Made by a program: the position numbers and the translations under genes. A DNA stretch of 24,000 nucleotides, from positions 7,429 to 31,428 of the forward strand of contig DASVQF010000028.1 of assembly GCA_036389315.1 (NCBI GenBank), given 5' to 3'. The notes beneath the pieces were generated by a model. That model did no database searches and was not told where the DNA came from. It saw only the letters and a program-made list of their open reading frames with translations. Origin of the DNA: Pyrinomonadaceae bacterium. GTDB lineage: Bacteria; Acidobacteriota; Blastocatellia; Pyrinomonadales; Pyrinomonadaceae. Shown piece after piece: positions 66 through 17,555 of this stretch. The first letter of the stretch is position 1; each line of letters starts with the position of its first letter.

Positions 66-2348
66 TTGAGCTATAAACCGCAACCTCTCGACACGGAACG
101 GGTCACTCTTCCCCCGGAGATTATCGAGCTTACGGAGCAATTGGCCCGCAATGCGCACGAGAACTGGGCGCGGAAGCGTCTGGCGGACGGCTGGCGCTAT
201 GGCCCTCGGCGCGATGACGCGCGCAAGGAGCATCCCGGCCTTGTCCCTTACGACGAGTTGAGCGAAGAGGAGAAGCAGTATGATCGCACGACCGCCCTTG
301 AGACGCTGAAGGCGATACTGCTCCTCGGCTATCGCCTGGATGCGCCGAGCCGCGAGGGCGGCGAAGAGGCTCACGCTTCGACCGACAACGAGCTGGCGGC
401 CTTGCGAGCGACGCTCGACAACCTGAGCACGCTTGATCTGGCCTCACTCTTCACGCTCTGGCAGTCTCACAACCCCGAGCAGTGGTCTAGCACGCCGGAC
501 ATCTACATCAGCCTCGGCGACCAGATACTCAAGTCGGGCGAGCCGCTGCTGGCCCACGACGTTCTGCTCGAAGGCTTGAAGCATTGGCCCATGAACGTGC
601 GTCTCAGGCAGTTGCAGGCTCTCGCCCTGGCGCGCAGCGGCGCGACCCAGCGGGCCAACAGCATTCTCATACAGCTTCACAAAGAGGGGCACACGGACGA
701 GGAGACCCTCGGGCTGCTGGCGCGCACGCATAAGGATTTGTGGGCCCGCTCGGCCGACCCCGAAGAACGCGCCCGCCAGTTGCGCCTGGCCCACCTGGTC
801 TACATCGAAGCCTATACTTTGAGCGGCGGCTACTGGACTGGAATCAACGCGGCGACGATGGCGCTCTTGATGGGCCAAAGGGAGCAGGCCGCGCAGTTGG
901 CCCAGGAGGTACACGAAGCTTGTCTGATGGAGTTGGCGAAGACCAGGGACGGAGACGCCAATCGCTATTGGCTGCTGGCGACTTTGGGCGAAGCGGCTTT
1001 GATCCTGGGCCAATGGCGCGAGGCCGAGGATTGGTACGCGCAGGCTGCTGCTCTGGGGCGCGGGCGCTTCGCCGAGCTGAACTCGACGCGCCGCAACGCC
1101 CGCCTCATCATAGACGCGCTCGGGGGCGTGCGCGAGCCCTTCGAGCATTACTTTCAGATTCCGAGCGTCGTCGTCTTCGCGGGCCACATGATAGACAGGC
1201 CCGAGCGCATGAGGCCGCGCTTTCCTCCGCAGCTTGAGCGGCGCCTGCAGGCGGCCATCGCCGGGCGTCTCAAAAGATTGAATGCGGGGGTGGGCTACGC
1301 TTCGGCTGCCTGCGGCTCGGACATCCTCTTTCTGGAAACCCTTCAGGAGATGGGCGGCGAGACGCACGTCGTCCTGCCCTACAATCAGAAACAGTTCATA
1401 GAGGACAGCGTGGAGATCGTCCCCCAGACGGATTGGGGCGCGCGCTTTGAGCAGGTCTTGCGTCGCTCGACGGATGTGCTGGTCGCCTCAGAGCAGAGGA
1501 TGGAGGGCGGCGTGCCCTTCGAGTACACGAACCTCTTGCTGCACGGAATGGCGAGCATTCGCGCCGACCAGTTAGAGACGGAGCTGATACCGCTCGTCGT
1601 GTGGGACGGGAAACGTGGCGACGGCGCGGGCGGAACCGAAAGCATCGTCAATCACTGGCGAGCGATGGGCCACCGCGTAGAGGTCATAGACCTGGCGGAG
1701 CTACTGCGCGAGGAGTGCCCGGAGCTGAGCGTTGGGCCAACGGAGCACGAAGCCCCGTTGCAGGAGGCCACGCCCGAGGAGACTGAGGCTGCGGAGTTCA
1801 CCACGCAGATGATCGCCATCCTCTTTGCCGATGCGGTCAACTTCAGCCGCCTCACAGAAGACGAGCTGCCCCGTTTCGTCCGCCACTTCCTCGGGATGAT
1901 CGGCGAGCTGGCCCTCGGCTCGCGCCATGCTCCGGTGATGAAGAACACCTGGGGCGACGGGCTCTACTTTGTTTTCCGCAGCGTGCGCGACGCAGGGCAG
2001 TTCGCGCTTGAGCTGGCCGAGCGCGTGGGCCACACCGACTGGACTGAGAAGGGCTTGCCGAAAGATATGAACCTGCGCATAGCCCTGCACGCCGGGCCCG
2101 TCTACGCCTGCATTGATCCGGTCACGCGCCAGCCCAATTACATCGGCACGCACGTCAGCCGCGCCGCGCGCATCGAGCCCATCACGCCGCCCGGACAGGT
2201 CTACGCCAGCCAGGCGTTTGCCGCCCTCGCCTCGGCCCAGCACGTCACGGAGTTCACCTGCGACTACGTGGGCCAAACCCCGCTCGCCAAAGGCTACGGC
2301 GTCTTTCCCACCTACCACGTCAGAAAGACAATGATGAAGGATGAATGA
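66..2348 (+). CDS. Multidomain signalling protein: N-terminal RyR domain, TPR-like helical region, SLOG/Rossmann-like module, C-terminal class III adenylate/guanylate cyclase domain
   Basis: 760-aa ORF with a TTG start at 66 and GAGGA 8 nt upstream. aa ~17-90 (NWARKRLADGWRYGPRRDDARKEHPGLVPYDELSEEEKQYDR) fit the RyR-domain consensus. aa ~585-745 (ILFADAVNFSRL, WGDGLYFVF, LRIALHAGPV, GTHVSRAARIE) fit the class III cyclase core. The middle part (VVVFAGH, AACGSDILFLE, VVWDGKRGDGAGGT) looks like a LOG/SLOG-type Rossmann module preceded by TPR-like helices. Confidence 0.85.
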   Translation: MSYKPQPLDTERVTLPPEIIELTEQLARNAHENWARKRLADGWRYGPRRDDARKEHPGLVPYDELSEEEKQYDRTTALETLKAILLLGYRLDAPSREGGEEAHASTDNELAALRATLDNLSTLDLASLFTLWQSHNPEQWSSTPDIYISLGDQILKSGEPLLAHDVLLEGLKHWPMNVRLRQLQALALARSGATQRANSILIQLHKEGHTDEETLGLLARTHKDLWARSADPEERARQLRLAHLVYIEAYTLSGGYWTGINAATMALLMGQREQAAQLAQEVHEACLMELAKTRDGDANRYWLLATLGEAALILGQWREAEDWYAQAAALGRGRFAELNSTRRNARLIIDALGGVREPFEHYFQIPSVVVFAGHMIDRPERMRPRFPPQLERRLQAAIAGRLKRLNAGVGYASAACGSDILFLETLQEMGGETHVVLPYNQKQFIEDSVEIVPQTDWGARFEQVLRRSTDVLVASEQRMEGGVPFEYTNLLLHGMASIRADQLETELIPLVVWDGKRGDGAGGTESIVNHWRAMGHRVEVIDLAELLREECPELSVGPTEHEAPLQEATPEETEAAEFTTQMIAILFADAVNFSRLTEDELPRFVRHFLGMIGELALGSRHAPVMKNTWGDGLYFVFRSVRDAGQFALELAERVGHTDWTEKGLPKDMNLRIALHAGPVYACIDPVTRQPNYIGTHVSRAARIEPITPPGQVYASQAFAALASAQHVTEFTCDYVGQTPLAKGYGVFPTYHVRKTMMKDE

Positions 2349-5737: not shown

Positions 5738-6241
5738 TTATGGCTGCGGGGCGGAGGCGGACTGCGCCGTATCGGTCGTGCCGCCCTCCTGCGAGCCTCC
5801 CGCAACGTCAGCGCCCAGCAGCTCTTTGATCTTGCCCGTGAGCGCCGGCAGCACCACTTCGCGCCCGGCCCTCGACAGCTCATTCAACAAGCGGTCTCCG
5901 AGGCTCGAAAGCTCCTCCTGTAAACGGTCGAAAGCCTGCGTGTTCTTGAACTTTTCGATCAGGCCCGGTTTGCCCGCGCCTTCCGCCAGCCCCCAATCCT
6001 GTTTGCCGCTGACGTAGGACGTGTGCTCGGCCGCCGCACTCGCCGTGAGGCCGCCCTGCGACCCTGCATCCTCTTCGCCGAACGCACCGGCCAGCCCGTA
6101 GCCGACCAGAATGCCTGCCGCCAGCGCGCCCGCGCTGAATGCCAGGGGGTGCTCGCTGATCTGCGCCCGCCAGTCAAAGCCGCCCGCAGCAGTCGCCGCC
6201 GCTGCTCCGCTCTGATCGTTTGAAGATAATTGACTAGACAT
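5738..6241 (-). CDS. Hypothetical protein with one predicted transmembrane helix
   Basis: The track ORF 5738-6445 was trimmed to ATG 6241 (MSSQLSSNDQSG). The upstream extension runs through a lower-GC, non-coding-looking stretch. There is a hydrophobic segment (LAFSAGALAAGILVGYGLAGAF) and then a helical C-terminal half. I recognise no family. Confidence 0.55.
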   Translation of the reverse strand: MSSQLSSNDQSGAAAATAAGGFDWRAQISEHPLAFSAGALAAGILVGYGLAGAFGEEDAGSQGGLTASAAAEHTSYVSGKQDWGLAEGAGKPGLIEKFKNTQAFDRLQEELSSLGDRLLNELSRAGREVVLPALTGKIKELLGADVAGGSQEGGTTDTAQSASAPQP

Positions 6242-6715
6242 ATCTGCTCTCCCTGCTCGTTTAAGAGAATTTAAGCATTGCCCCGCGACCCTATCCGAGT
6301 ATTGATGTTTTGTTATTACAGAGATTTCACGGATTCGTTGCCGGAAGGAGCCTGCTTGCAAGTGGGGCCGGGATAGTGCATGATGGACTGGTTGGTTCTC
6401 CTTCTCTCGCGCATCAGCGGCGATCTGGCCCCGCACCTCGATCAATTTGGCGGCGGCGTTACGGATAGTTCGAGAGCAGGCTGATTTTGTTCAATTTCAG
6501 AAGCCACTTTCGCCACCGAGATAGCATCCCGTTCGCAAAAGCCTTTAACGGCCGCCGCCTGCGCCGAAGCGACCTTGAGCGTGAAGCTTCTTTTCATTTC
6601 CCCCGACAGAGGAAACGGATATACGTATGTCCGGACAATAGCGGGGCTCGCTGGCCCGGCCCTGAAACGTGAATGCTGAGACGCGCATCTAACCTATTAA
6701 AAGGAGAAATTTAGT

Positions 6716-6937
6716 TTGGCAAAAGAAGATCTTATTCCGGCGGAGGGCGTCGTGGTGGACAAGCTGCCCAACGCCTTCTTCAAAGTGAGACTCGACGGCA
6801 GCGACCATGTCGTTATGGCGCAGATTTCCGGCAAGATGCGCAAGAACTTTATCCGCATTCTGGCCGGCGACCGCGTGAGCGTCGAGCTTTCACCTTATGA
6901 TCTGACCAAGGGCCGCATTACTTATCGCTATAAATAG
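6716..6937 (+). CDS. infA: Translation initiation factor IF-1
   Basis: The 73-aa product ([72 protein letters not shown]) is an unmistakable IF-1 S1-like OB fold. The start is TTG, preceded by AAAGGAGAAA. Confidence 0.95.
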
Positions 6938-6994
6938 GGCTTGAGACGGCTGCACACCGAAGAGGCGGACATCAGCCACGGAGAGAAGGATATA

Positions 6995-7351
6995 ATGGAA
7001 AAACAGATTTACGCAGTCGGTGATCGTGTCGAGAAATTGTGTGACGTGTGCGAGGAAGAGCGCGGCCATGTCGTCGCATCCGTCACCAAGCGCGGCACTA
7101 TCTCGCGCGTCAGTTGCCCGAAATGCGGAACGCGCAGCGCCTACAAGAGCCGGGAGGCGGACGGGCATGTGCGTGCGACGGCGAAATCCGGGGCCCCTTA
7201 TGATCGGACGCGCACCTATCGCGCCGGACAGACCATGATGCATCCGGTCTACGGCATGGGCGAGGTGACGGCCGTCATCGAGCCGCAGAAGATAGACGTG
7301 CTTTTTCCCGACCGCATGCGCCGTTTGATTCATTCCCGTGCTCAAGCGTAG
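6995..7351 (+). CDS. Hypothetical zinc-ribbon protein with DUF3553-like C-terminal motif
   Basis: Trimmed to ATG 6995. Four Cys form a zinc ribbon (CDVCEEERGH...CPKCGTRS). The C-terminal YRAGQTMMHPVYGMGEVTAVIEPQKIDVLFPD resembles the small G-x-V-x-H-x-x-F/Y-G-x-G-x-V domain I recall as DUF3553 or the CarD N-terminus. This recall is unverified. Confidence 0.5.
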   Translation: MEKQIYAVGDRVEKLCDVCEEERGHVVASVTKRGTISRVSCPKCGTRSAYKSREADGHVRATAKSGAPYDRTRTYRAGQTMMHPVYGMGEVTAVIEPQKIDVLFPDRMRRLIHSRAQA

Positions 7352-7574
7352 AAGATTGAAGACCCTCGCCCTGCGCAAAAGGCAGCGCCGCAGAATCCTT
7401 CCCGCCTGGACGCGCGCCGGGATGCCTCTGACGTTTCGCGCAGAGGTCATGCCCGGACGCTCTGCCAGCGAGCGTACATATACTGTGCTGCGCATACTGG
7501 CGAGCGGGCGAGTCGAGCTGATCGGAATGGCTGGACAGCACGGCGCGGCGGAATTTGAACCGGCGCGGGCTTGA
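7338..7574 (+). CDS. Possible small hypothetical protein (may start at ATG 7422)
   Basis: Open frame with GC-rich third codon positions. The N-terminal 28 aa are Arg/Lys-rich and overlap the previous gene. A 50-aa version starting at ATG 7422 (MPLTFRAEVMPGRSASERTYTVLRILASGRVELIG) is equally possible. I recognise no family. Confidence 0.3.
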   Translation: MLKRRRLKTLALRKRQRRRILPAWTRAGMPLTFRAEVMPGRSASERTYTVLRILASGRVELIGMAGQHGAAEFEPARA

Positions 7575-7601
7575 GCCGCTCGGCCCGCGAGCGAAACCTT
7601 A

Positions 7602-7871
7602 ATGAGCAATCATCCCCTATACGTCAAAGAAGACCCCGCTTCGAGGAGAATCGAGCTGCGCGAGCGCGGCATCTACAGCTTTCCCGACGGCGAGGAGTTT
7701 GTGGCGAGCGTGGCGCGCGGCGGCGGCTACGCGCTCTACGACCCGCAGGTCTGGAAGCGTTACGGGATGCCCGATTACGAGATAGATGCTAAGGGGCGTA
7801 TGACGCACGTCGGCCAATCGACGCACTGGCGCATAGAAGACCTGACCGATACTGGGCGGACGGCCGATTGA
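7602..7871 (+). CDS. Hypothetical protein (89 aa)
   Basis: ATG-initiated ORF with balanced, globular-looking composition (MSNHPLYVKEDPASRRIELRERGIYSFPDGEEFVASVARGGGYALYDPQVWKRYG). No obvious Shine-Dalgarno sequence and no recognised family. Confidence 0.5.
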   Translation: MSNHPLYVKEDPASRRIELRERGIYSFPDGEEFVASVARGGGYALYDPQVWKRYGMPDYEIDAKGRMTHVGQSTHWRIEDLTDTGRTAD

Positions 7872-8080: not shown

Positions 8081-8881
8081 ATGGCAGGCTTGAGGCATAA
8101 AATCTGGATTATCGCGGCGCTGCTCCTGATGCCGTCGCTCGCCTTCGCTCAAAGCTCAAGGGCGAAGCGCACGGCCGCGACGCAGAAGACGCAAGGCGAT
8201 GCCGTGATCGTCTCGCGCGCCGACGAGCAGCCGGCCGCGCCCCTCATGACGAGCCACCAGGAGCTAGTCAAAGCCACAGAGACTTACAAGTCCAGCCTGA
8301 GAGAGCTGCTCGCGTTGCGTGAGAAAGGGGTCGCGCAGGCGGCCGAAGAGCTGGAAAAGTTGCGGGCGCTTTACAAAGACGGCATCATCTCGCGCCGCGA
8401 CTTTGAGAAGAGCGAAGCGGCATTGACGGAGCTTCGCGGAGGCGTCGAAGAGGTGCGCCAGAAGATCAGGGCGGCCGACCAGATGGTCGCCGAAGCCCTC
8501 ATCGAAGCGCAGGCGGCCGCCGCCCCCCCCGTGCAGGTCATGCCCCGTGGGAGCACTGTGAGAAGCGTCGCCTACATACGCTACGCCGGCTCCGGCAGTT
8601 GGTCTCTTTCCGAGGCCGCGAAGATAGAGAGCTTCTTCTACGGACAGTTCGGCCATCACCTGCCCGTGAGCGCCTTCGGGCAATCAGACCTGCATAACCG
8701 CTGGGGCTACGATCACCGTAACGCTATGGATGTCGCGCTGCACCCGGACAGCCGCGAAGGACAGGCCCTTATGGCCTACCTGAGCAGCCAGCGCATCCCC
8801 TTCCTGGCCTTCCGTCAAGCCGTCCCGGGCTCCGCCACTGGCCCACACATACACGTCGGCAAACCTTCAAGCAAGAACTGA
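8081..8881 (+). CDS. Secreted coiled-coil protein with SHOCT-like motif and possible LAS-type metallopeptidase-like C-terminus
   Basis: Signal peptide (MAGLRHKIWIIAALLLMPSLAFAQS) followed by a helical region containing LEKLRALYKDGIISRRDFEKSEAAL, which is SHOCT-like. The C-terminus has HRNAMDVAL and GPHIHVG, reminiscent of the H..D / HxH zinc ligands of LAS-type peptidases. This last point is weak and by eye only. Confidence 0.6.
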   Translation: MAGLRHKIWIIAALLLMPSLAFAQSSRAKRTAATQKTQGDAVIVSRADEQPAAPLMTSHQELVKATETYKSSLRELLALREKGVAQAAEELEKLRALYKDGIISRRDFEKSEAALTELRGGVEEVRQKIRAADQMVAEALIEAQAAAAPPVQVMPRGSTVRSVAYIRYAGSGSWSLSEAAKIESFFYGQFGHHLPVSAFGQSDLHNRWGYDHRNAMDVALHPDSREGQALMAYLSSQRIPFLAFRQAVPGSATGPHIHVGKPSSKN

Positions 8882-8966: not shown

Positions 8967-9701
8967 CTAGTACCACGCCGGTTGTTTATCTATCAGGAGC
9001 TTTGATCTCGGGATGGAAAGATAGTCTTTGGCCCAGGCTTCTCTCTGCACTGGGCGGAAGTCATCCGTCAAGACGGCTTCTCGTCCGTCGAGCGGAACTT
9101 TGTTGGCCGAGAGCTTGCGGTAGTCGCGTGTGCGCCCGCGCACGCTCTCGTAATAATCTCTGAAGTGGACGGGCAAGACCCGCAAGCCTTCCGTCCAGTA
9201 GTAGACCCTGCCGAAGTAGGCCGCATGCAGCCACCGCTCCCACGGGCGCGGCAAGTACAGCTCAGCCTTCAAGCTCGCAGTGTAGAGCGGAAGCCACAGC
9301 ACGTAGATTCCGAGTCGCCCGTATTCGGCCGTGCGGTATTTGATCTTGTCCAGCGAGAGGCTGCTCAGTTGCACCTCTATGGCGACGGGCACGCCGTTGA
9401 TGTAGGCGCTGATGTCCGGCCGCACTGTGCCCAGGTTGCGCTCGATCTCGCATTTGGTGACGCGCTCGTGCGCCGACAGGCTTTCATAAATAGCCATCTT
9501 GCACAGGCGGTGTGCTTCGGATTCTCCCGTCCCGTATTCGCAGACGACGGGCGGCTGGTGTGCGAAGTGCGGCGCGCGCAAAGCGCCCTTGCGCAGCGTG
9601 ACCTGGCGGCCACAGCAATGACAGATAAAAGGTCTCTGCTCCCTGCTAGCTTCCCAGGCCGCGAGCTTAACTCCGTCAGCCTCTCTTCTGGCCGTCAGCA
9701 T
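8967..9701 (-). CDS. CoiA-like competence-family protein (PD-(D/E)xK nuclease fold)
   Basis: N-terminal zinc-finger-like motif RPFICHCCGRQVTLRKGALRAPHFAHQ...CEYGTGESEAHRLCK, then VRPDISAYINGVPVAIEVQLSSLSLDKIKYRTAEYGRLGIYVLWL. This matches the CoiA pattern (HFAH, ESxEH, R-x-D, E-x-Q-x-S) as I recall it. The gene overlaps the upstream gene by 26 nt. Confidence 0.75.
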   Translation of the reverse strand: MLTARREADGVKLAAWEASREQRPFICHCCGRQVTLRKGALRAPHFAHQPPVVCEYGTGESEAHRLCKMAIYESLSAHERVTKCEIERNLGTVRPDISAYINGVPVAIEVQLSSLSLDKIKYRTAEYGRLGIYVLWLPLYTASLKAELYLPRPWERWLHAAYFGRVYYWTEGLRVLPVHFRDYYESVRGRTRDYRKLSANKVPLDGREAVLTDDFRPVQREAWAKDYLSIPRSKLLIDKQPAWY

Positions 9702-10167
9702 CTCTCTCAGGATCGTTAGCAGTAGTGTTGATGTCGAACTGTTCCAGGTATGAAAGGTCTAGCGTCCATTGATGGCAGCTACGACGATGCCACAGCTCGA
9801 AACAGCCTTCGACATAGAAGCTGGCGTCGGAGAGCGACCACCCGTTGACGCGTGCCAGGTGAGCGACGGCGCGGGCCTGATTGCCGCGTACGTGGGCCAA
9901 GCCTATGTGCTTGACTTCGTGGCAGGCCGGACAGAGCGCCAGGAGGCGGACGAGCTTCTGCACGCGCCGCTCATCATCATAGGCGAACACTTCATGACAT
10001 TCGACGGGCCACTTCCGTCCGCGCCCTCCGCACACTTCGCACGCGTAGCGCGCGCGCCTGAACGTCACCCGCTTGAGCCTCTCCCACTCGCCGGCCGAAA
10101 CGTTCGAGCGCACGTTGCGATACCAGGAAGACCTGGGCACAAGCTCGATGGTCAACAGCTCTTTCAC
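9676..10167 (-). CDS. HNH-like zinc-finger nuclease-family protein
   Basis: The track ORF was trimmed to GTG 10167, which overlaps the upstream stop as GTGA. The motif is CEVCGGRGRKWPVECHEVFAYDDERRVQKLVRLLALCPACHEVKHIG, i.e. CxxC...CHE...CxxCHxxxH, a beta-beta-alpha-metal / HNH-type finger. Confidence 0.65.
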   Translation of the reverse strand: MKELLTIELVPRSSWYRNVRSNVSAGEWERLKRVTFRRARYACEVCGGRGRKWPVECHEVFAYDDERRVQKLVRLLALCPACHEVKHIGLAHVRGNQARAVAHLARVNGWSLSDASFYVEGCFELWHRRSCHQWTLDLSYLEQFDINTTANDPERDADGQKRG

Positions 10168-10730
10168 TCGCGCGTCTCTCTTTGATCCCTGCTCATTGCC
10201 GCCAGTCTCTTGAGGAGTTGGCAGGTCGCCTGAACGTCGCGGGCGGCGCGGTGGTTGCCGCCTTCGAGCCCGAAAGCGGCGCAGGCTTCGCCGAGCGTCG
10301 GAGAGCGGCGCGTGCCCAGCATCCTTTTGACGAGCAGCATGGCGCAGCGCCAGCCGCGCTCCGTCGAAGCTTGATGATAGCGCGAGCATTCGGCCGCGAA
10401 GGCGCGACGGTCGAAGGCGGCGTTGTAGGCTATGAGCAGGCGGCCCGCGACCTGCCCGTCGAGCTGCGGCCAGATCTCCTCCCAGCGGGGCGCGCCTTCC
10501 AGCTCCGCGCGGTCGAAGCGATGGTGCTTGGACGGCGGCGGCAGAGCGTTGAAAGTGGGCCGCACGAGCGACTCGTAGATGATCTCGCCGTTCATGTCGC
10601 CGAGGGCGATCTCTATGATCTCGACCGTGGGCCCGGCCCCCACTGTCTCCGTGTCTATGACCAGGGCTCTATCGTTCAGCTCGTAAATCTCAAGCTGCGG
10701 GGTGTAGAGCTGTTTGACGTTAAAGTGCAT
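10164..10730 (-). CDS. DEDDh 3'-5' exonuclease (DnaQ/RNase T superfamily)
   Basis: Exo I motif LVIDTETVG, Exo II motif LIAYNAAFDRRAF and Exo III motif HRAARDVQATCQLL. The gene is 9 nt downstream of the DUF790-like gene. Confidence 0.85.
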   Translation of the reverse strand: MHFNVKQLYTPQLEIYELNDRALVIDTETVGAGPTVEIIEIALGDMNGEIIYESLVRPTFNALPPPSKHHRFDRAELEGAPRWEEIWPQLDGQVAGRLLIAYNAAFDRRAFAAECSRYHQASTERGWRCAMLLVKRMLGTRRSPTLGEACAAFGLEGGNHRAARDVQATCQLLKRLAAMSRDQRETRE

Positions 10731-10739
10731 GATTGATGG

Positions 10740-11954
10740 TTAATCCGAGATGAGAGCGTTGAGGGCCAACTCCACCGCGACCGGCTCCAGCCTGGTCTTA
10801 TAGATGATCGTGTGCGGCGGGACGCGCGTCAGTGGCTCGCGGCTGCCGCGCAAGTCGTCCCAGGCGGCAAGCAGGAAGTTGCGGACTGCGGCGTGCTCGA
10901 ACTCCTTCAATCTCTGCTGCAAGTGACGGGGCGTCCAGAAGCCCAGAATCTCAAGATAAAAAGTATGCCCCCGGTCGTCTGTGAGCACGAAGTCGGGAAT
11001 GAAGGCGCTCTCGCCGAGGTCTATGACTTTGCTGCTCGGCTCAAGAGTCCAGGCGCTCTCGAACCTGGCCCAAGCCTCCAACAGCTTCTCCTGCGCCGAA
11101 GACTCGCGCGCCCCGGCAGCGGCGAAGTAGTGCGAGCGCAGGAGCGTTTGATTGCTATCCAGCTCGAAGAAAGCTTTACCGCCACTGCCCGGCTTCTGTG
11201 CTATCTCCGCCCTCATGCGCCAGCCCTTGCAAAGCAGCAGCGCCGGAAGAAAGACTGCCATCTGCACGCCGTACTTCTGCGAGCGATGAAACATGGAGAC
11301 GGGCCCATCGAGCCGGATTTCGTAACCCGTCTCGGCGCTTCCCTTGATCGTGTGAATCAACCTGTAAGCCTTGATCGCGCCGAACAGCTCACGATAATTT
11401 TCCGGCCCCTGCGGCTCCACCTTGAGGTGCATTTCCAGGCAGCGATAGAGGAGCGCCTGTGCCTGGGCCAGGTTATAAAGATCGAGCAGCTCGCCTTTTG
11501 TCAGGTGCTCGAACTCCAAGAGCTTCTGGTTCGCGGGCAGGTCTGCGTAGAGCCCCGCCAGCACAGTCTCGGGCGCGCACCCGAGCGCGAGCGCCGTCTC
11601 TCGCAACACAGCCTCGCGCTCCTCCTCACTCTCGTCCGTGACCGGATGAAAGTGGCGCGCCTGAAGAAAGAGCGCCCGGCGAATCTCCACAGGGTCTACG
11701 GGGCTGGCGGTTTCAAACGTGCAGCGATCCATCAGAAGCTTGATGAGCCCGCGCAGGATTCTGTAGTCCGTGCCGAGCCCGACGTACTCTTCAAGAGCCT
11801 GGGCCAACTCCTGCCGGGTGCGCCCCTCGTGCTCTACGAAAAGCCTGATCAGCTCCTCGGCGTCGCGCAGGTAGCCCTCGTCCGTAGTCTCTATGTAGCG
11901 TGGGCCACAGCGCCCGCCGCGCTGCCAGCTCTGTGCCAGATCGGCCGTCAACAT
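10740..11954 (-). CDS. DUF790/Bax1-like endonuclease (XPB-associated nuclease family)
   Basis: 404-aa ORF starting 3 nt after the XPB-like helicase gene. The C-terminal AFIPDFVL...FYLEILGFWTPRHLQQRLKEF matches my memory of the restriction-endonuclease-like core of DUF790 (PDF...E-I-x-GFWTPEYL). The conserved helicase adjacency supports the call. Confidence 0.7.
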   Translation of the reverse strand: MLTADLAQSWQRGGRCGPRYIETTDEGYLRDAEELIRLFVEHEGRTRQELAQALEEYVGLGTDYRILRGLIKLLMDRCTFETASPVDPVEIRRALFLQARHFHPVTDESEEEREAVLRETALALGCAPETVLAGLYADLPANQKLLEFEHLTKGELLDLYNLAQAQALLYRCLEMHLKVEPQGPENYRELFGAIKAYRLIHTIKGSAETGYEIRLDGPVSMFHRSQKYGVQMAVFLPALLLCKGWRMRAEIAQKPGSGGKAFFELDSNQTLLRSHYFAAAGARESSAQEKLLEAWARFESAWTLEPSSKVIDLGESAFIPDFVLTDDRGHTFYLEILGFWTPRHLQQRLKEFEHAAVRNFLLAAWDDLRGSREPLTRVPPHTIIYKTRLEPVAVELALNALISD

Positions 11955-11957
11955 AAC

Positions 11958-13379
11958 TTAGATGAACCTGCGCGCGCGGCTCGCCTCTTCGGTCGCGTGC
12001 CGCGCTTCGCGAAACTGACCGGCATCAGTCCTGCGCCTGCTGATGTTCTCCTCCGTGGTCTCGCTGGTGACGACTTCATAAAGAATCGCCTCCTTACCGG
12101 GCTGCTTGCGAAGTATGCGCCCGAGGCGCTGAATGTGCTCGCGCGATGAGCCTGAGCCGGAGAGGATGACGGCGACTGAAGCCTCTGGGATGTTGACCCC
12201 CTCGTTGAGCACCTTGGAAGTGGCGAGCGCAAGCACATCGCCCTGATTGAAAGCCTCTAGCCACTGGCGACGCTCCTTAATCCCCGTCTCATGCGTGATC
12301 GCAGGGATGAAGAACTGCTCGGAGATGCGATAGACCATCTCGTTCTCGGCCGTAAAGATCAAGGTGCGATCCCTCTTGTGGCGGCCGAGCAGTTGAGCGA
12401 GCACCCTCAGCTTGGCTTCCGTCCCCAAAGCTATGCGCTTCGACTCTCTGTAAGCGAGCATGGCGCGGCGTCCGGCTTCGCTGCGCGCGCTCGCGGCGAT
12501 AAACGTCTGCCAGCCGCGTAAAGAGCCCAGGTCTATACGCTTCTCCTGTAGAAAGCGCCGAAAGACTGCGCGCTCAGACTCGTACAGCTCGCGCTCTTCG
12601 GGACTGAGGCGGACGTTGATGCGAACGATACTATAGTCGGCCAGGTACTCGCCGGCCAGTTCGTGCGCCTCGCGCCGGTAAACGATTGGGCCAATCAATT
12701 GCTCAAGACTGTTCTCAGCGCCGTCGGCCCGCTCGGGCGTCGCCGTCAACCCCAGTCGAAAGGGCGCAATCGCCATCTCGGCCGCATAGCGATAGATGCT
12801 GCTCGGCAGGTGATGGCATTCGTCGAAGATGATGAGGCCGAACTGATTGCCCAGGCGCTCCATGAAGCGGAAGGCCGACGCGTAGGTCGTCACGGTCAAA
12901 GCTCCCGTCTCGTAGTAGCCGCCGCCGATCAATCCCACTTCGGCCTGAAAGCAGGAGAGCAGAAGGTCGTACCACTGGTTCATCAGGTCAATGGTCGGGA
13001 CGATGACGAGCGTGGAGCGTTTCGTCTGCTCGATGGCCATCTGCGCGACGAGGCTCTTGCCAGCGCCCGTCGGCAGCACTATCACGCCGCAGCGATTAGC
13101 CCTTCGCCACTCCTGTATCGACTGCTGCTGGTAAGGTCGCGGCTCGACCTGTAGCCGCACGGGGAAATCAAACTCAAGGTAGGCGCGCGCGCGATCCTCG
13201 TAAGGCACTTGCTGGCGAATGAGGTCTCGGACGACGTGGCGATAGGCCCAGGCCGGAGCGCGCCAGCGCATCACGCGCTCGTCCCAGCGAAACTGGGCCG
13301 GAACAACCGCCTCGCGCCCGGCTCCGTCCAGCAGCAACGTCCCCGCCTCGAACCGCAGTAACACATCCGTCGAACTCAT
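11958..13379 (-). CDS. XPB/Ssl2 (ERCC3/Rad25)-like superfamily 2 DNA helicase
   Basis: SF2 motifs are present: I VLPTGAGKS, II IIFDECHH, III LGLTATPERADG (the position of the XPB RED-like motif) and VI HIQRLGRILR. The N-terminal LRFEAGTLLLDG...RWDERVMRWRAPAWAY resembles the XPB damage-recognition-type domain. Confidence 0.85.
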   Translation of the reverse strand: MSSTDVLLRFEAGTLLLDGAGREAVVPAQFRWDERVMRWRAPAWAYRHVVRDLIRQQVPYEDRARAYLEFDFPVRLQVEPRPYQQQSIQEWRRANRCGVIVLPTGAGKSLVAQMAIEQTKRSTLVIVPTIDLMNQWYDLLLSCFQAEVGLIGGGYYETGALTVTTYASAFRFMERLGNQFGLIIFDECHHLPSSIYRYAAEMAIAPFRLGLTATPERADGAENSLEQLIGPIVYRREAHELAGEYLADYSIVRINVRLSPEERELYESERAVFRRFLQEKRIDLGSLRGWQTFIAASARSEAGRRAMLAYRESKRIALGTEAKLRVLAQLLGRHKRDRTLIFTAENEMVYRISEQFFIPAITHETGIKERRQWLEAFNQGDVLALATSKVLNEGVNIPEASVAVILSGSGSSREHIQRLGRILRKQPGKEAILYEVVTSETTEENISRRRTDAGQFREARHATEEASRARRFI

Positions 13380-13453
13380 CTCGCAGTAGAGATTACCTCA
13401 CGCCCACGCCCGATTTCTAACGCGGCCGCGAAAAGCTCCTCGCCCTTCTCCTT

Positions 13454-14446
13454 CTACGCCGCCCGCTCCCTGGCGATCCTCTCCTGTAAAAAGGCCAGCA
13501 CTTCGCGCTTCTGACCCGTCGCCAATGCGTCCACGCTCTCCACCTTATATTTCTTCCCAAGCCAGTCCGAGAGCTGATCTTCCGTTTTACCCAGGCGGCG
13601 GCACGCGGCCAGAATCTCAACGCGAAGCTCAGCCTCCTCCGCGCCTGGCCCGGCAGCTTGCCTCTCATCCTGAGAAAACTTTCGCCCGCCGCCCGCCGTT
13701 GGCCCAACCGGAGCAGGCTGGGACGCCGCAGGCGCTTGTGGCGCAACCGCCGTCGAGGTGCTGATGAAATCTTCAACGTCCTGCGTGAAAAATTCAGAGG
13801 CGTTGACGGCCAGCAGAGTCGCCGCGATCAAAGAGCGTTTCTGCCCCATCTTCTGAATCGTGTTGACCTGATCTGCGATCTCAGCGTTGGGCACACGCCC
13901 GACTTGCTGGCTTTCGATCACAGGGTCGCCCGCGGAGAATTTCGCGCCGCAGCCCCCCTTCTTGCGGAAACAGAGCCAGCCACCGCCGTACTCCTCCTTG
14001 CCCTTGATGATCGCGGCCTGCGCGCACTCGGGGCAGACTCTCTGGGCTTCGCGGTAGCGGTACTTGGTCTCGCGCGAGTTGCAGGAGCCGTCGGCCTCGG
14101 CCACCAGCAGGTCGCCGCGAAAGAGCTGGCAGCGATAGAGGTAATAGAAGAAGGGCTCGCTGTTGTGATCTTCGCCCGTCCAATCCTCTATCCGCTCGAT
14201 CAACTGAAAGCGGGTGCTGAGACCAAAGAAGGTCGTCAGCTTCTCCGCGCCCGGCTTGAGCAGCGTGAGCTTGTCCGTGCCCGGAATCATCCCGTAGTCA
14301 ATGTCCTTCCTGAGCACCCGACTGACGAACTCCGTGATCGTATTGTAACGCTCGACGGCCAGCTCAATGGACATCGCCGGCATGAACTGCGAGCGATCAG
14401 CGGGCGCGAGCGCGCCCCTCATCTCCGGCGGCAACTCTTCATTCAT
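13454..14446 (-). CDS. Putative Rad52-superfamily (Erf/Sak-like) single-strand annealing protein with inserted zinc ribbon and extra C-terminal domain
   Basis: DIDYGMIPGTDKLTLLKPGAEKLTTFFGL...AEADGSCNSRETKY...NTIQKMGQKRSLIAATLLAVNASEFFTQDVED resembles the core and the KMAxKRAL...FTQD..ED helix that I recall from phage Erf/Sak-type recombinases. There is a CPEC...CFRKKGGCG zinc ribbon, then a Pro/Ala-rich linker and a helical C-terminal domain. Adjacency to ssb fits. The functional call is tentative. Confidence 0.45.
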   Translation of the reverse strand: MNEELPPEMRGALAPADRSQFMPAMSIELAVERYNTITEFVSRVLRKDIDYGMIPGTDKLTLLKPGAEKLTTFFGLSTRFQLIERIEDWTGEDHNSEPFFYYLYRCQLFRGDLLVAEADGSCNSRETKYRYREAQRVCPECAQAAIIKGKEEYGGGWLCFRKKGGCGAKFSAGDPVIESQQVGRVPNAEIADQVNTIQKMGQKRSLIAATLLAVNASEFFTQDVEDFISTSTAVAPQAPAASQPAPVGPTAGGGRKFSQDERQAAGPGAEEAELRVEILAACRRLGKTEDQLSDWLGKKYKVESVDALATGQKREVLAFLQERIARERAA

Positions 14447-14525
14447 ATCATTCTCATCCGTGTGCGATGAACGCTTGGCCCAAAGGCGCGCGGTCGCGTG
14501 GGCCCATCCGGCTCGGGCCGAGATC

Positions 14526-14987
14526 TTAGAATGGGATCGAGTCTTCGTCTACGGCGGCCGTGCGCGCTGGAGGAACGCGACCTCCCGCCGGACGCGTGGA
14601 ATTCTGACTTCGCGACTGGTCGAACGAGCGCACCGGGATGCCTTCACGCTCGGCGCTCGCCCCGCCGTCGATGAACTGTACGTCGCTCGCATTGATTTCG
14701 AGCGTGTAGCGCGGCTTGCCTTCCTTGTCCGTCCACTCTTCCAGGTGCAGACGCCCTTCGACATAGGCGCTCCTGCCCTTGGACAGGTACTTCGAGACAG
14801 CCTCGGCCTGCTTGCCCCAGACCGTCACGCGGAACCAGGTGGTAGTGTCCTGCTGCTCGCCCCCGGCCCCTTTGCGCCGCTCGTTCGACGCGATGCTGAA
14901 GGTGCAGACGGGCGTGCCCTGCGGCGTGTATCGCATTTCGGGGTCGCGCCCCAGGTTCCCGACGACGATGATCTTGTTGAATGACAT
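14526..14987 (-). CDS. ssb: Single-stranded DNA-binding protein
   Basis: Trimmed to ATG 14987. OB fold (MSFNKIIVVGNLGRDPEMRYTPQGTPVCTFSIA...WFRVTVWGKQAE), a disordered linker and the acidic tip DEDSIPF. Confidence 0.92.
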   Translation of the reverse strand: MSFNKIIVVGNLGRDPEMRYTPQGTPVCTFSIASNERRKGAGGEQQDTTTWFRVTVWGKQAEAVSKYLSKGRSAYVEGRLHLEEWTDKEGKPRYTLEINASDVQFIDGGASAEREGIPVRSFDQSRSQNSTRPAGGRVPPARTAAVDEDSIPF

Positions 14988-15078
14988 GCTCTTTTTATCC
15001 TCTCGCTTTTTAAAGCCGCTCCTGTTGCAAACGTAGGACAGTGTATCACACGCAGTTTCAACTGTATAGATTCCCATC

Positions 15079-15804
15079 TCAGCTTCTCAAATCGACGACC
15101 CAGGCTTGGGGAAGATACTTGTCGATCAAGTAGCCGTTGAAGTTGAGCCAGCGGGCCGCACGGTCGAGGATGGATGAATCGGAGGTCACGGCTACAGTCT
15201 CGGCAGACGCAGAGATTTCGGCGTCCGGGTTAAAGACTACTTCGACCGTCCAGGGCCAGGCGTGCTCCTGGGCCAAGTCTCTGACTTTCTGCGCGAGGCG
15301 TCCGCTGTTGGAGATGGGTTTGTCCAAGAGCCATCTGACGGAAGCGGGCCCTAGATGAGCGAGCGCCTCGCCCGTCATTTGCACAGCCCGCTCGGTCTCC
15401 TCCACTGAACGATAAGAGCCATGCACGCCGGACAAATCGCGCAGGCAATCGTCGCGACAGAGAATAACGAGGCCGCCCGAGAGAGCCGCTTCGAGGGTGA
15501 TGACGAGATTGAAGCCGTCGATGATTAGATGCTGGCCGCGCGCGGCCTCCACGGGCAGACGCCGCGCGCGCCGCTCTTCAAGGCTCTGCTCTGAGCAGGC
15601 GGCGCGCGCTACGGCCAGGCGTTGCCGCTCGGTCAGGCCGTGACGGTCGCCCACCAGTTTCAAAGCAGACTTCAGGCTGTAGCCGTGCGTCAGCAGCCAG
15701 GACAACTCCCGCACGGCGGCCCTCAGCGCCCCTTGCTGCCGAGCATGGAACAAGCGCCCGTCAGACGGGTGTGGCCCGCGATGCTGCCGATTATCAGGAC
15801 TCAA
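15079..15804 (-). CDS. DUF434-like protein with uncharacterised (possibly PIN-like) C-terminal domain
   Basis: TTG start at 15804 with GGAG 7-8 nt upstream. The N-terminus (HRGPHPSDGRLFHARQQGALRAAVRELSWLLTHGYSLKSALKLVGDRHGLTERQRLAVARA) matches my memory of the DUF434 signature (RGP.P.D...L..A..DL.WLL.RGY....LKLVGDR..L..RQR.A). The C-terminal half (LIIDGFNLVITLEAAL...VAVTSDSSILD) is alpha/beta and acidic-residue bearing. Confidence 0.55.
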   Translation of the reverse strand: MSPDNRQHRGPHPSDGRLFHARQQGALRAAVRELSWLLTHGYSLKSALKLVGDRHGLTERQRLAVARAACSEQSLEERRARRLPVEAARGQHLIIDGFNLVITLEAALSGGLVILCRDDCLRDLSGVHGSYRSVEETERAVQMTGEALAHLGPASVRWLLDKPISNSGRLAQKVRDLAQEHAWPWTVEVVFNPDAEISASAETVAVTSDSSILDRAARWLNFNGYLIDKYLPQAWVVDLRS

Positions 15805-15919
15805 AGCGGAACTCCTTTCACTTCCGACCCGGCCGCCGAACGCCCGGTATTTTAATGCTTTTTTTCCTCTTTCGCTCTTGTCTCATGCGTGAAACATTGT
15901 GGCACAGCCGCACGAAACG

Positions 15920-15928
15920 TGCTATAAT
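15920..15928 (+). promoter_or_regulatory. Extended -10 promoter element (TGcTATAAT) for the SWIM / Zn-ribbon / radical SAM unit
   Basis: TGCTATAAT at 15920-15928 in an otherwise GC-rich divergent intergenic region. I found no good -35 element. The palindrome GCACG-AAA-CGTGC (15910-15922) overlaps it. Confidence 0.4.
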
Positions 15929-15935
15929 GCTTTCC

Positions 15936-16271
15936 ATGAAAACGAGCATAAAAAAGAGAGAGATGGGCAAGGTACACGTTTTCACGGCCGCTGAGCAGCG
16001 AGCGGCGCGCTCTGAGCGCATCAAGGTCTACGAGGCAGAGCCTTATGGTTGGATCGCCCGTTCGGAAGACGCGAGCGCGCAGCGTGACTATCACCTCTTC
16101 CGCGACCCCGAAACGAAACACCTGGCTTGCACCTGCGCGGACTTCATCTACAGGGGCAATGCCGAGCCGGGCTTTGAATGCAAGCACGTTTCGGCCGTGC
16201 TGAAGTTCATAGCGCGCTGGTACTTGGCCCATGAATACACACCTGAGCGTCAGCGGGCCCGCGTCGCCTGA
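15936..16271 (+). CDS. SWIM zinc-finger protein
   Basis: CTCADFIYRGNAEPGFECKHVSAV is the CxCx(n)CxH SWIM signature. The start is uncertain: ATG 15927 lies inside the putative -10, ATG 15936 would be near-leaderless, and ATG 15963 follows AAGAGAGAG. Confidence 0.65.
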   Translation: MKTSIKKREMGKVHVFTAAEQRAARSERIKVYEAEPYGWIARSEDASAQRDYHLFRDPETKHLACTCADFIYRGNAEPGFECKHVSAVLKFIARWYLAHEYTPERQRARVA

Positions 16272-16532: not shown

Positions 16533-17555
16533 ATGCGTTACGTAGAGAACCCTCCCAACCCCTGGCTGAGCACGAATGTTGAGTGGATAGGCGAGCCGCC
16601 CGAAGCCCGCCTCGAAGTCTTTGAAGAGACGGCGACGCGCTCGATCATCACGCGCAACCAGAGTCCGGACGTAGGCTTCGAGTTTTCGGTCAACTGCTAT
16701 CGCGGCTGCCCGCACGCCTGTAGCTACTGCTTCTCGCGCCCGACGCACGAGTACCTGGGCTTCGGCGCGGGGACTGATTTCGAGCGCAAGATCGTCGCCA
16801 AAGTGAGAGCGCCGGAGCTGCTCAGAGCGGAACTGATGCGCCCCTCTTGGCGTGGCGACGAGCTGGTCTTCTCCTTCACCTCCGATCCTTATCTTCCGCT
16901 CGAAGCCCATTACAGGCTGACGCGCAGGTGTCTTGAGGTCTGCCTGGAATTTCGCCAACCTGTAGGCATCGTGACCAAATCGGCGCTCGTTCGCCGCGAC
17001 GTGGAGCTGCTCGCGGAGTTGGCCCGGGAGGCCGCTTGCGCGGTCTTCTTCACTATTCCTTTCAAGGACGAGGAGACGGCGCGCGCTTTAGAGCCCTATG
17101 CGCCCGCGCCCGAGCTGCGCTTTCGCGCGATGGAAGAGTTGTCGCGCGCTGGCATCAAGACCGGAATCGGAATCGCTCCGCTCGCGCCCGCGATGAACGA
17201 TTCCGACATCCCCTCTCTTCTCAAGCGGGCGCGCGAGGCCGGGGCAACGGTGGCCTGGATGACTATGCTGCGCCTGCCTGGAAGCGTCGCGCCATATTTC
17301 GAGCAGCGGCTCAGAGAGCGCCTCCCGCTTCGGGCCGAACGTATCCTCAAACACATCAGGGAAGAGCGCGGAGGGCGACTCAACTCAAGCCAGTTCGGCG
17401 CGCGCATGAAGGGAACGAGCGAGCAATGGAAGATGACGGAACAGCTCTTCAAGCTGCATTGCCGCCGTCTAGGCTTCAACAGTCAGAGATATTTGGAAGA
17501 GGATAAGCCGAACACTTTTCGCCGCCCGACCCGTCAGGGTGCGCTCTTCGATTGA
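16533..17555 (+). CDS. Radical SAM protein, SplB/PA0069-like (annotated elsewhere as DNA repair photolyase family)
   Basis: Canonical CX3CX2C cluster motif in [12 protein letters not shown]. The N-terminus (YVENPPNPW...[17 protein letters not shown]...[23 protein letters not shown]) matches my memory of the PA0069/COG1533 family. Confidence 0.8.

Follow-up and report, generated by a model that had tools for sequence, protein, structure and literature searches.

In archaea, the superfamily 2 (SF2) helicase XPB and the nuclease Bax1 constitute a helicase–nuclease machine, as described for A. fulgidus and S. tokodaii (PMC7293015, PMC7672443). The XPB of M. tuberculosis exhibits ATP-independent strand annealing and D-loop unwinding, and a role in single-strand annealing (SSA) or synthesis-dependent strand annealing (SDSA) was proposed for it; at the time of that report, in 2012, a bacterial XPB–Bax1 complex had not yet been identified, and the biological role of prokaryotic XPB–Bax1 was described as still poorly understood (PMC3353954). 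Here, we analyzed a 24,000-nucleotide (nt) stretch of DNA from the metagenome-assembled genome of a Pyrinomonadaceae bacterium (Acidobacteriota; assembly GCA_036389315.1, contig DASVQF010000028.1, positions 7,429 to 31,428), hereafter called the window, in which genes for XPB and Bax1 homologues follow an ssb gene and the gene of a predicted annealing protein, designated P6. To our knowledge, the role of the prokaryotic XPB–Bax1 pair has been poorly understood ever since the archaeal pair was described.

Chromosomal annealing proteins that operate with SSB-type proteins are known from Deinococcus, where the Rad52-like DdrA and the DdrB/SSB proteins serve in single-strand-annealing repair; their genes are dispersed members of a regulon for radiation and desiccation and form no cluster with XPB–Bax1. 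The resemblance to the present locus is a functional analogy only, namely a host annealase acting with SSB-type proteins in stress-tolerant soil bacteria, whereas P6 is clustered with XPB–Bax1. The phage two-component recombinases (lambda Red-beta/Exo, RecT/RecE, Erf, and Sak/Sak3), in which an annealase is paired with an exonuclease and frequently with SSB, share with P6 a predicted core of the Rad52 annealase superfamily, which is defined by a three-stranded beta-sheet crossed by an alpha-helix, together with a beta-hairpin (PMC11783212). In Bacillota, to which the protein is reported to be restricted, CoiA is a D-loop resolvase that acts with the helicase RadA (bioRxiv 10.1101/2024.02.06.579203). 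Our literature searches returned no description of a system in which SSB and an annealase of the Rad52 type are joined to XPB–Bax1, in agreement with the initial annotation, which knew of no named system of this composition; the arrangement appears to be undescribed, and its parts are of known kinds.

The gene order was compared over loci encoding relatives of P6, 80 of them from species-representative genomes and 25 from viruses (individual loci are given L numbers), in which the eight proteins of the window cluster were located by tblastn. In 48 of the species loci, all from Pyrinomonadaceae or related Blastocatellia, ssb and/or XPB lay beside P6, and presence was counted only over loci with enough sequence to judge. 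SSB was encoded upstream of P6 in 38 of 40 evaluable loci, XPB downstream of P6 in 42 of 43, and Bax1 in 36 of 37, and the order ssb–P6–XPB–Bax1 was kept on one strand across these linked loci. A CoiA-like gene was present in 17 of 33 loci, in many of them directly after Bax1, while the genes for a DEDDh exonuclease (10/33) and an HNH endonuclease (8/33) were found in the closest clade only, and the DUF434 gene of the window genome was seen in none of 38 evaluable relatives. The remaining 32 genome loci and all viral loci contained P6 only, in most cases reduced to the N-domain, and the surroundings there were phage-like or unrelated. These presence counts, together with the breaks in gene order described below, indicate that the block is modular, comprising [ssb–P6], [XPB–Bax1], [DEDDh–HNH], [CoiA], and, in the window genome only, [DUF434]. 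The earlier view of one eight-gene cassette therefore does not hold, as the gene-order test splits the block into a four-gene core shared by about 40 species and an optional remainder. With middling confidence, we read the locus as a vertically inherited chromosomal recombination-repair neighbourhood of separable modules, in which a domesticated phage annealase and SSB stand beside a bacterial XPB–Bax1 pair.

The inheritance of the block was assessed from its surroundings. The window flanks encode HtrA, a BON-domain protein, MarR, IF-1, a TonB-dependent receptor, a PA0069-family radical SAM protein, CtaG, and cytochrome c, and this flanking gene order is common to the six closest relatives. 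The cluster genes are 69–91% identical in the closest relatives, which is the same range as that of the flanking housekeeping genes, and this equal divergence indicates vertical descent. Outside the nine closest loci, the four-gene core was still there, but not one of the 15 flanking genes tested from the window could be detected; the immediate neighbours fell into 18 upstream and 15 downstream clusters, as counted with a crude open reading frame (ORF) picker. That the core persists despite this turnover of its surroundings speaks for some selection on its arrangement, although the evidence all comes from one lineage.

No integrase, capsid, terminase, replication initiator, or other structural or packaging gene was found in the window, nor were tRNAs, Rfam matches, or flanking or terminal repeats, including att repeats, so that the absence of prophage hallmarks noted initially was upheld. 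Because the housekeeping flanks are syntenic in close relatives and equally diverged, the cluster is neither a prophage nor a defence island.

The XPB gene (11958–13379, minus strand) encodes a protein with a damage-recognition domain (XPB_DRD, PF18458, 4.8e-17, residues 8–64) followed by two RecA-like domains (ResIII, PF04851, 4.3e-29; Helicase_C, PF00271, 2.2e-16) and an ERCC3_RAD25_C match (PF16203, 2.7e-13), with the Walker A motif GAGKS and the motif II sequence DECHH. The position of the RED motif, which follows helicase motif III, reads RAD in the window (TATPERADG) and RED in some relatives (e.g. TATPEREDG in L063). The Bax1 gene (10740–11954, minus strand) begins 3 nt after XPB, and its product matches DUF790 (PF05626, 5.7e-102) over positions 1–383 of 387, i.e. 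over the full length. The corresponding NCBIfam models were matched below their equivalog cutoffs (XPB, NF045503, 1.5e-61, 208.6 vs 610 bits; Bax1, NF053694, 2.6e-49, 168 vs 500), and on these profiles the two proteins are classed as family members, not as equivalogs of the characterised archaeal proteins.

The pair shares with archaeal XPB–Bax1 the adjacent gene order of helicase, then DUF790 nuclease, as well as the damage-recognition domain and the SF2 core. It differs from the archaeal pairs in its bacterial host, its sub-equivalog scores, the RAD in place of RED, and the further nuclease genes downstream, as well as in its position beside ssb and an annealase candidate, a neighbourhood not reported for archaeal pairs. 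The likeness to M. tuberculosis XPB is that of another bacterial XPB, whose annealing activity and proposed SSA or SDSA role fit the genomic hint obtained here. Plasmid-borne DUF790–helicase pairs were also found in haloarchaea and on 12 Deinococcus replicons. A Bax1 homologue search returned matches only from the same bacterial family and is uninformative on other phyla.

The P6 gene (13454–14446, minus strand) encodes a protein that matched a single family, phrog_10048 of PHROG (function unknown, 1.7e-39), and gave no sequence match in Pfam, NCBIfam, PADLOC, or the PDB by phmmer and profile search. When 51 diverse members were searched against Pfam and PHROG with E up to 1, phrog_10048 and zinc-ribbon models only were matched, and no RecT, ERF, or Rad52 model. 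The family is large, with 9,094 representatives at 50% identity for E up to 0.001 and 2,847 for E up to 1e-30; it has no Pfam model, and its homologues in cultured phages are all annotated as 'hypothetical protein'. The window protein consists of an N-domain (about residues 20–228), a variable linker, and a three-helix C-terminal domain (268–329), with a zinc ribbon of the type CxxC...CxxxxxxC (C138–C166) inserted in the N-domain between the sheet and the crossing helix.

An AlphaFold2 model of the N-domain, built from a diverse alignment, reached a predicted local distance difference test score (pLDDT) of 87.7 and a predicted template modelling score of 0.75; an earlier run with a shallow alignment of close homologues had given a pLDDT of 57, and the fold search with that model was meaningless. 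The elements follow in the order of a helix, a beta-hairpin (51–62), a helix (64–73), three long strands (77–88, 99–110, and 113–123), the four-cysteine zinc ribbon, and a long helix (190–214), so that the predicted domain displays the defining topology of the Rad52 superfamily. In a Foldseek search against the PDB, the top four matches were chains of the human RAD52 entry 8rjw (best match: probability 0.95, E 0.016, template modelling (TM) scores 0.25/0.34 over 98 columns), and Mgm101 was also listed. Against the predicted viral structures of BFVD, eight matches fell below 1e-3, the best being A0A8S5UDN7, named 'RecT family protein' (4e-14, TM 0.57/0.53), and matches named RecT, ERF, Sak3, Rad52, and 'phage recombination protein' appeared further down.

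The genomic contexts of P6 homologues in phages provide an independent line of evidence. The neighbours of phage and non-acidobacterial P6 N-domains on IMG/VR contigs and in genomes include integrase, Sipho_Gp157, Mu Gam-like, VRR_NUC, DnaB_C, SF2 helicase, and SSB genes, and an SSB gene follows the P6 homologue in L005 and L099. In Geobacillus virus E2, the homologue lies after a 'Mu Gam-like end protection' gene and upstream of the replisome organiser, and in Pseudomonas phage UFJF_PfDIW6 an exonuclease gene lies directly 3' of it; in Myxococcus phage Mx4 and Lacticaseibacillus phage R9.1, the surroundings consist entirely of 'hypothetical protein' annotations. The predicted fold and the phage gene context together make it quite probable that P6 is a single-strand annealing protein. 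Its family most likely represents a branch of the Rad52 annealases that has so far escaped recognition. The initial suggestion of a Rad52/Erf-like candidate with a zinc ribbon is thus backed by predicted structure and phage gene context, while being invisible to sequence search.

In their phages, P6 homologues occupy the annealase slot beside exonuclease, Gam/Gp157, or SSB genes, and in the window P6 lies beside ssb and near the DEDDh exonuclease gene. In contrast to the known phage recombinases, P6 falls outside the RecT, ERF, and Rad52 Pfam models and the annotated PHROG families, carries an inserted zinc ribbon, resides on the chromosome of a bacterial family in which it is fixed and passed on vertically, and has XPB–Bax1 as its neighbours, not a lambda-Exo or RecE-type 5'–3' exonuclease.

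Variation within the P6 family was also observed. Inteins with LAGLIDADG homing-endonuclease domains interrupt the P6 homologues of two Pyrinomonadaceae genomes (L068, 10001–11980, DATDFK010000003.1; L088, 9971–12055, OY970256.1) at two different conserved sites, corresponding to window P6 residues ~204 and ~159; one site lies after the invariant QKMxQKR helix motif and the other at a zinc-ribbon cysteine. In proteins of replication and recombination, inteins tend to occupy critical sites. Two further long homologues, P0121 (684 residues) and P0177 (654 residues), match in two pieces. On an IMG/VR viral contig (L020, 3234–4502), the homologue lacks the zinc ribbon and has a cysteine-free insertion of ~70 residues in its place, suggesting that the ribbon is an insert that can be exchanged for another at this point, where the sheet gives way to the crossing helix. 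The metagenome-assembled genome SMAG_U3383 carries, besides the P6 of the cluster (L038), a second, N-domain-only copy beside a Gp157-like gene (L072). This copy is 74% identical to window P6 over residues 12–251, the same value as for the viral contig L003 (IMGVR_UViG_3300034402_000016), which indicates that phages of this host family carry close relatives of P6.

All eight minus-strand ORFs, which span 15804 to 8967 in the ORF list of the window, were reproduced with exactly the coordinates and spacings first given, and public gene calls on the source contig, JGI Ga0334932_000011 (273,735 bp), which encodes a protein 100% identical to P6, agree with them. The intergenic gaps are 91, 79, 74, 3, and 9 nt, with a GTGA overlap at 10164–10167 and a 26-nt overlap at 9676–9701; these spacings are exact with the starts of SSB at 14987 (MSFNK), HNH at the GTG of 10167, and P6 at 14446. 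Profile hidden Markov models (HMMs) confirmed the families assigned to seven of the eight proteins, P6 being the one that depends on structure and context. The ssb gene (14526–14987) encodes 153 residues (PF00436, 1.9e-38; TIGR00621, 4.7e-43) with the canonical acidic C-terminal tip DEDSIPF.

The first gene of the block (15079–15714, extendable to 15804) encodes an N-terminal DUF434 (PF04256, 2e-18) and a DUF5616 (PF18481, 3.5e-50) domain. The start at 15804 gives the longest possible ORF, gene callers give 208–211 residues with a start near 15714, and the Pfam match starts at residue 27 of the long form. This architecture, COG2454, has been classed as a PIN-like/NYN nuclease (PMC5499597), so that the number of predicted nucleases in the block is five and not the four originally counted.

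Downstream of Bax1, the DEDDh 3'–5' exonuclease gene (DnaQ-like, 10164–10730) encodes a match to RNase_T (PF00929, 1.8e-16) and phrog_192 (2.4e-31). The HNH gene (9676–10167) encodes a phage-type endonuclease (phrog_5200, 1.9e-50) in which CxxC...CxxC and H-N-H are present and which has no Pfam match. The terminal, semi-conserved gene (8967–9701) encodes a PD-(D/E)xK protein matching CoiA_N (PF25164, 8.8e-12, 44.8 bits, cutoff 26.3) and CoiA_nuc (PF06054, 3.1e-12, 47.3 bits, cutoff 20.3), the latter over positions 1–78 of 158 only, and the D and the ExQ of the nuclease core are visible in RPDISAY and AIEVQ, respectively. Since CoiA is reported to be restricted to Bacillota and the host belongs to Acidobacteriota, this protein is filed as CoiA-like only. 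It shares with the RadA–CoiA pair the logic of a helicase combined with a PD-(D/E)xK nuclease, here as a CoiA-family protein terminating the cluster; it differs in that the helicase is XPB, the phylum lies beyond the reported range, the protein is shorter (244 residues), and the gene is optional. PDB sequence searches with the DUF434, HNH, and CoiA-like proteins returned nothing useful, the HNH protein matching only IcmJ/DotN at 0.012.

A ~48-nt element upstream of ssb is nearly invariant in the alignment of the nine closest relatives. Its 19-nt core, TGTG[AGC][TC]AC[AG][AC]TGT[TC][TC]CACG, was found in 25 species loci at a distance of 55–140 nt before ssb, and it also immediately precedes the stand-alone P6 genes of L034 and L047. 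The window contains two promoter/operator-like copies on the minus strand, copy A at 15883–15930 (core TGTGCCACAATGTTTCACG at 15888–15906) and copy B at 15023–15069 (core TGTGATACACTGTCCTACG at 15032–15050), the latter 36–82 nt upstream of ssb and overlapped by a sigma-70-like site. The element resembles an extended -10 promoter of the form TGnTACAAT, TACACT, or TACGAT, followed by further conserved bases, and it may also be an operator. It was matched to no known regulator, and the LexA box GTTCN7GTTC of the Alphaproteobacteria/Acidobacterium type is absent from the window. An RNA-hairpin reading of the element (GCAYG-TTT-CRTGC in copy A) was not adopted, and no part of the window matched Rfam.

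In five relatives (L029–L032 and L085), copies A and B stand in tandem ~75–125 nt apart with no gene between them, whereas in the window the DUF434 gene lies exactly between the two copies. This difference suggests that the DUF434 gene was inserted recently and has copy A upstream as its own, and that ssb has retained copy B. The bases of copy A also read on the plus strand as a TGnTATAAT promoter (15899–15928), 7 nt before the ATG of a divergent gene (15927–16271), which looks leaderless; this gene encodes a small CxC...CxH SWIM-like protein, part of the conserved flank and with no family assignment.

A further putative promoter precedes XPB. In the window, the -10-like hexamer TAATCT lies at 13390–13395 on the minus strand, 10 nt upstream of the start codon, and in 20 of 45 loci the XPB ATG is preceded by a GTAATCT-like motif that ends 6–13 nt ahead of it, with no Shine-Dalgarno sequence. 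The motif is retained where foreign genes part P6 from XPB, e.g. in L042 with two unrelated genes. The position of this motif before an ATG lacking a Shine-Dalgarno sequence, and its retention despite inserted genes, suggest that XPB has a separate, nearly leaderless transcript. From XPB onwards, the short gaps (3 and 9 nt) and the two overlaps would allow XPB–Bax1–DEDDh–HNH–CoiA to be transcribed as one unit, and no convincing terminator was found inside the block. The sequence features suggest three transcription units, namely DUF434, ssb–P6, and XPB through CoiA. A single unit for all eight genes, which the initial annotation had left as one option, is less likely than its other option of two or three linked units, because of the insertions between P6 and XPB, the arrangement of L040 described below, and the separate elements before DUF434, ssb, and XPB.

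In the favoured reading, the first module, ssb and P6, would supply SSB and a domesticated phage-type annealase of the Rad52 superfamily, expressed from the conserved promoter/operator element. The second, XPB–Bax1, probably has its own nearly leaderless promoter and is followed here by the DEDDh exonuclease, the phage-type HNH endonuclease, and the CoiA-like protein, a putative structure-specific nuclease. XPB–Bax1 would open and incise damaged, broken, or stalled DNA, exonucleases would expose single strands, and SSB would coat them; P6 would then be recruited and anneal complementary strands, and the CoiA-like and Bax1 nucleases would trim flaps or D-loops. The outcome would be break or gap repair of the single-strand-annealing type, without or alongside RecA. 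The gene identities, their order and conservation, the vertical inheritance, and the conserved upstream elements are established by the comparison, while the annealase activity of P6, the promoter assignments, and any cooperation of the modules are plausible inferences.

Hints in favour of the repair reading are the methylpurine-DNA glycosylase and AlkB-like genes found at the locus in relatives and the PA0069-family radical SAM gene next door. Among the roles considered initially, a repair module and a domesticated phage cassette fit best. The former stands as a reading whose mechanism we infer; the latter applies to P6, and perhaps to the HNH and DEDDh proteins, but not to XPB–Bax1.

Several observations weigh against this reading of cooperating modules. 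Sequence HMMs give P6 no link to RecT, ERF, or Rad52, the RAD52 fold match is weak (E 0.016, TM 0.25–0.34), and the 'RecT family protein' name of the best BFVD match is an automated annotation. The XPB–Bax1 pairs of Deinococcus and haloarchaeal plasmids stand alone, without SSB or an annealase, and on one Deinococcus plasmid examined the pair has no repair-related neighbours. L040 (9486–11734) has ssb–P6–CoiA without XPB–Bax1, which shows that CoiA can adjoin the annealase directly, and P6 stands alone amid housekeeping genes in four Blastocatellia loci (L034, L047, L078, and L098). In nine species, 0.7–7 kb of unrelated genes separate P6 from XPB (among them SDR and RibD_C; a methyltransferase and an AlkB-like gene; a kinase-like gene; AAA_35/TPR and outer-membrane genes), and because such genes are tolerated between them, the P6 and XPB modules need not be co-transcribed. 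The ssb gene may be just the housekeeping copy, and the linked loci all belong to one family or class, so that the conservation owes partly to shared ancestry.

These points sustain the alternative that the adjacency is functionally meaningless, a housekeeping ssb and a domesticated annealase having come by chance to lie beside an independent XPB–Bax1 pair of the excision-repair type and a few stray nucleases, with the order kept by ancestry. The insertions between the modules and the stand-alone occurrences of P6 keep it alive, and the separate promoter-like elements before ssb and XPB, the self-sufficiency of XPB–Bax1 as a two-gene unit elsewhere, and the origin of the linkage evidence from one lineage are in line with it. 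However, P6 and XPB stay together in 42 of 43 species while the outer flanks turn over, and even after insertions the modules remain within 7 kb of each other, with strand and order unchanged. In addition, CoiA follows either Bax1 or P6, and methylpurine-DNA glycosylase and AlkB-like repair genes have been drawn to the same spot. Of the alternatives considered, mere adjacency is the most serious, though on this evidence we think it unlikely.

The other alternatives assign the block a different function or origin. A dedicated SSB is typical of Bacillota competence regulons, and in a transformation-linked module SSB and the annealase would protect and pair incoming single-stranded DNA, while XPB–Bax1 and the CoiA-like protein would extend and resolve the D-loop as the helicase–resolvase pair RadA–CoiA does in Bacillota. 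The CoiA_N and CoiA_nuc domains fit this idea, as does the D-loop resolvase activity of CoiA with a helicase, but the gene is present in only 17 of 33 species, the nuclease match covers 78 of 158 positions in a protein outside the reported range of CoiA, the window contains no com, DprA, or uptake genes, and we know of no competence in Pyrinomonadaceae. The transformation role proposed initially thus hangs on an optional CoiA-like gene alone and is improbable. An anti-phage or anti-plasmid helicase–nuclease defence system, also proposed at the outset, is if anything still less probable. Phage recombinases are among the proteins that defence systems are known to target or to mimic, and several nucleases, a variable accessory gene content, and matches of the XPB core to PADLOC PbeA (1.1e-54) and dnd-type restriction helicases and of DEDDh to PDC-S48 (1.8e-25) would suit such a system. 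The PbeA match, however, is confined to the generic helicase core (model positions 248–656 of 672); Bax1, P6, SSB, HNH, CoiA, and DUF434 have no PADLOC match apart from one weak zinc-finger hit, five of the eight proteins having none, and PADLOC-DB 2.0 yielded no complete defence system among the cluster proteins. Moreover, about 40 species have inherited the locus vertically, fixed and in synteny between housekeeping genes, which is contrary to the patchy occurrence of defence islands, and SSB with an annealase is a repair/recombination signature. Lastly, the best matches of P6, HNH, and DEDDh are phage families, and the P6 N-domains of phages of the host family (L003 and L072) share 74% identity with their chromosomal counterpart, as would be expected of a decayed prophage recombination module that has lost its structural genes. 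Synteny across species largely refutes this explanation, the insertion site being shared and the divergence equal to that of the flanks; the window lacks integrase, att repeats, tRNA, and structural genes, XPB–Bax1 and CoiA are not phage families (Bax1 and CoiA have no PHROG match), and the reading frames of the cluster are all intact and the proteins highly conserved. We regard a prophage remnant as very improbable.

Some genes around the block are recorded here as separate observations. A methylpurine-DNA glycosylase gene (PF02245, 7.9e-65) lies upstream of ssb in L061 (7497–8144) and in six loci in all (ORF cluster 19, including L051 and L065), and in one relative, again L061 (12050–12715), a gene for an AlkB-like 2OG-Fe(II) oxygenase (2.4e-36) lies between P6 and XPB. 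The PA0069-family radical SAM gene (16533–17555, plus strand; NF033668, 355 bits vs a cutoff of 360) is located on the strand opposite to the cluster, at a distance of ~730 nt, and has been retained in L040 as well as in the closest relatives; the family belongs to COG1533, a group often annotated as DNA repair photolyase. Downstream of the CoiA-like gene, a secreted protein of 266 residues is encoded at 8081–8881 (plus strand) and kept in the closest relatives, and two conserved flanking ORFs of ~235 residues lie at 5738–6445 and 6890–7609 (minus strand); none of the three has a family assignment. In a protein of 760 residues encoded at 66–2348 (plus strand), a RyR domain (9.7e-34) and a TPR-S sensor domain are joined to an adenylate/guanylate cyclase domain at the C-terminus, an unusual signalling architecture.

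The conserved partnership with SSB and an annealase candidate suggests that XPB–Bax1 serves strand-annealing recombination rather than classic excision repair, and it provides a set of genes that can be tested together. In its strongest form, this would mean that ssb–annealase–XPB–Bax1(–CoiA) is a dedicated, possibly damage-inducible SSA pathway for break or gap repair, in which the annealase and SSB pair strands while XPB–Bax1, the CoiA-like protein, and DEDDh unwind DNA and process ends and flaps; we advance this form only tentatively, as one more likely to prove wrong than right. If true, it would give prokaryotic XPB–Bax1 its first physiological context and would constitute a bacterial parallel to eukaryotic Rad52-dependent SSA with its structure-specific flap nucleases. 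The large P6 family is of practical interest for recombineering, and, on the predicted nature of P6, the locus represents a clean case of a phage recombination gene that has become fixed as a host gene under a conserved regulatory element.

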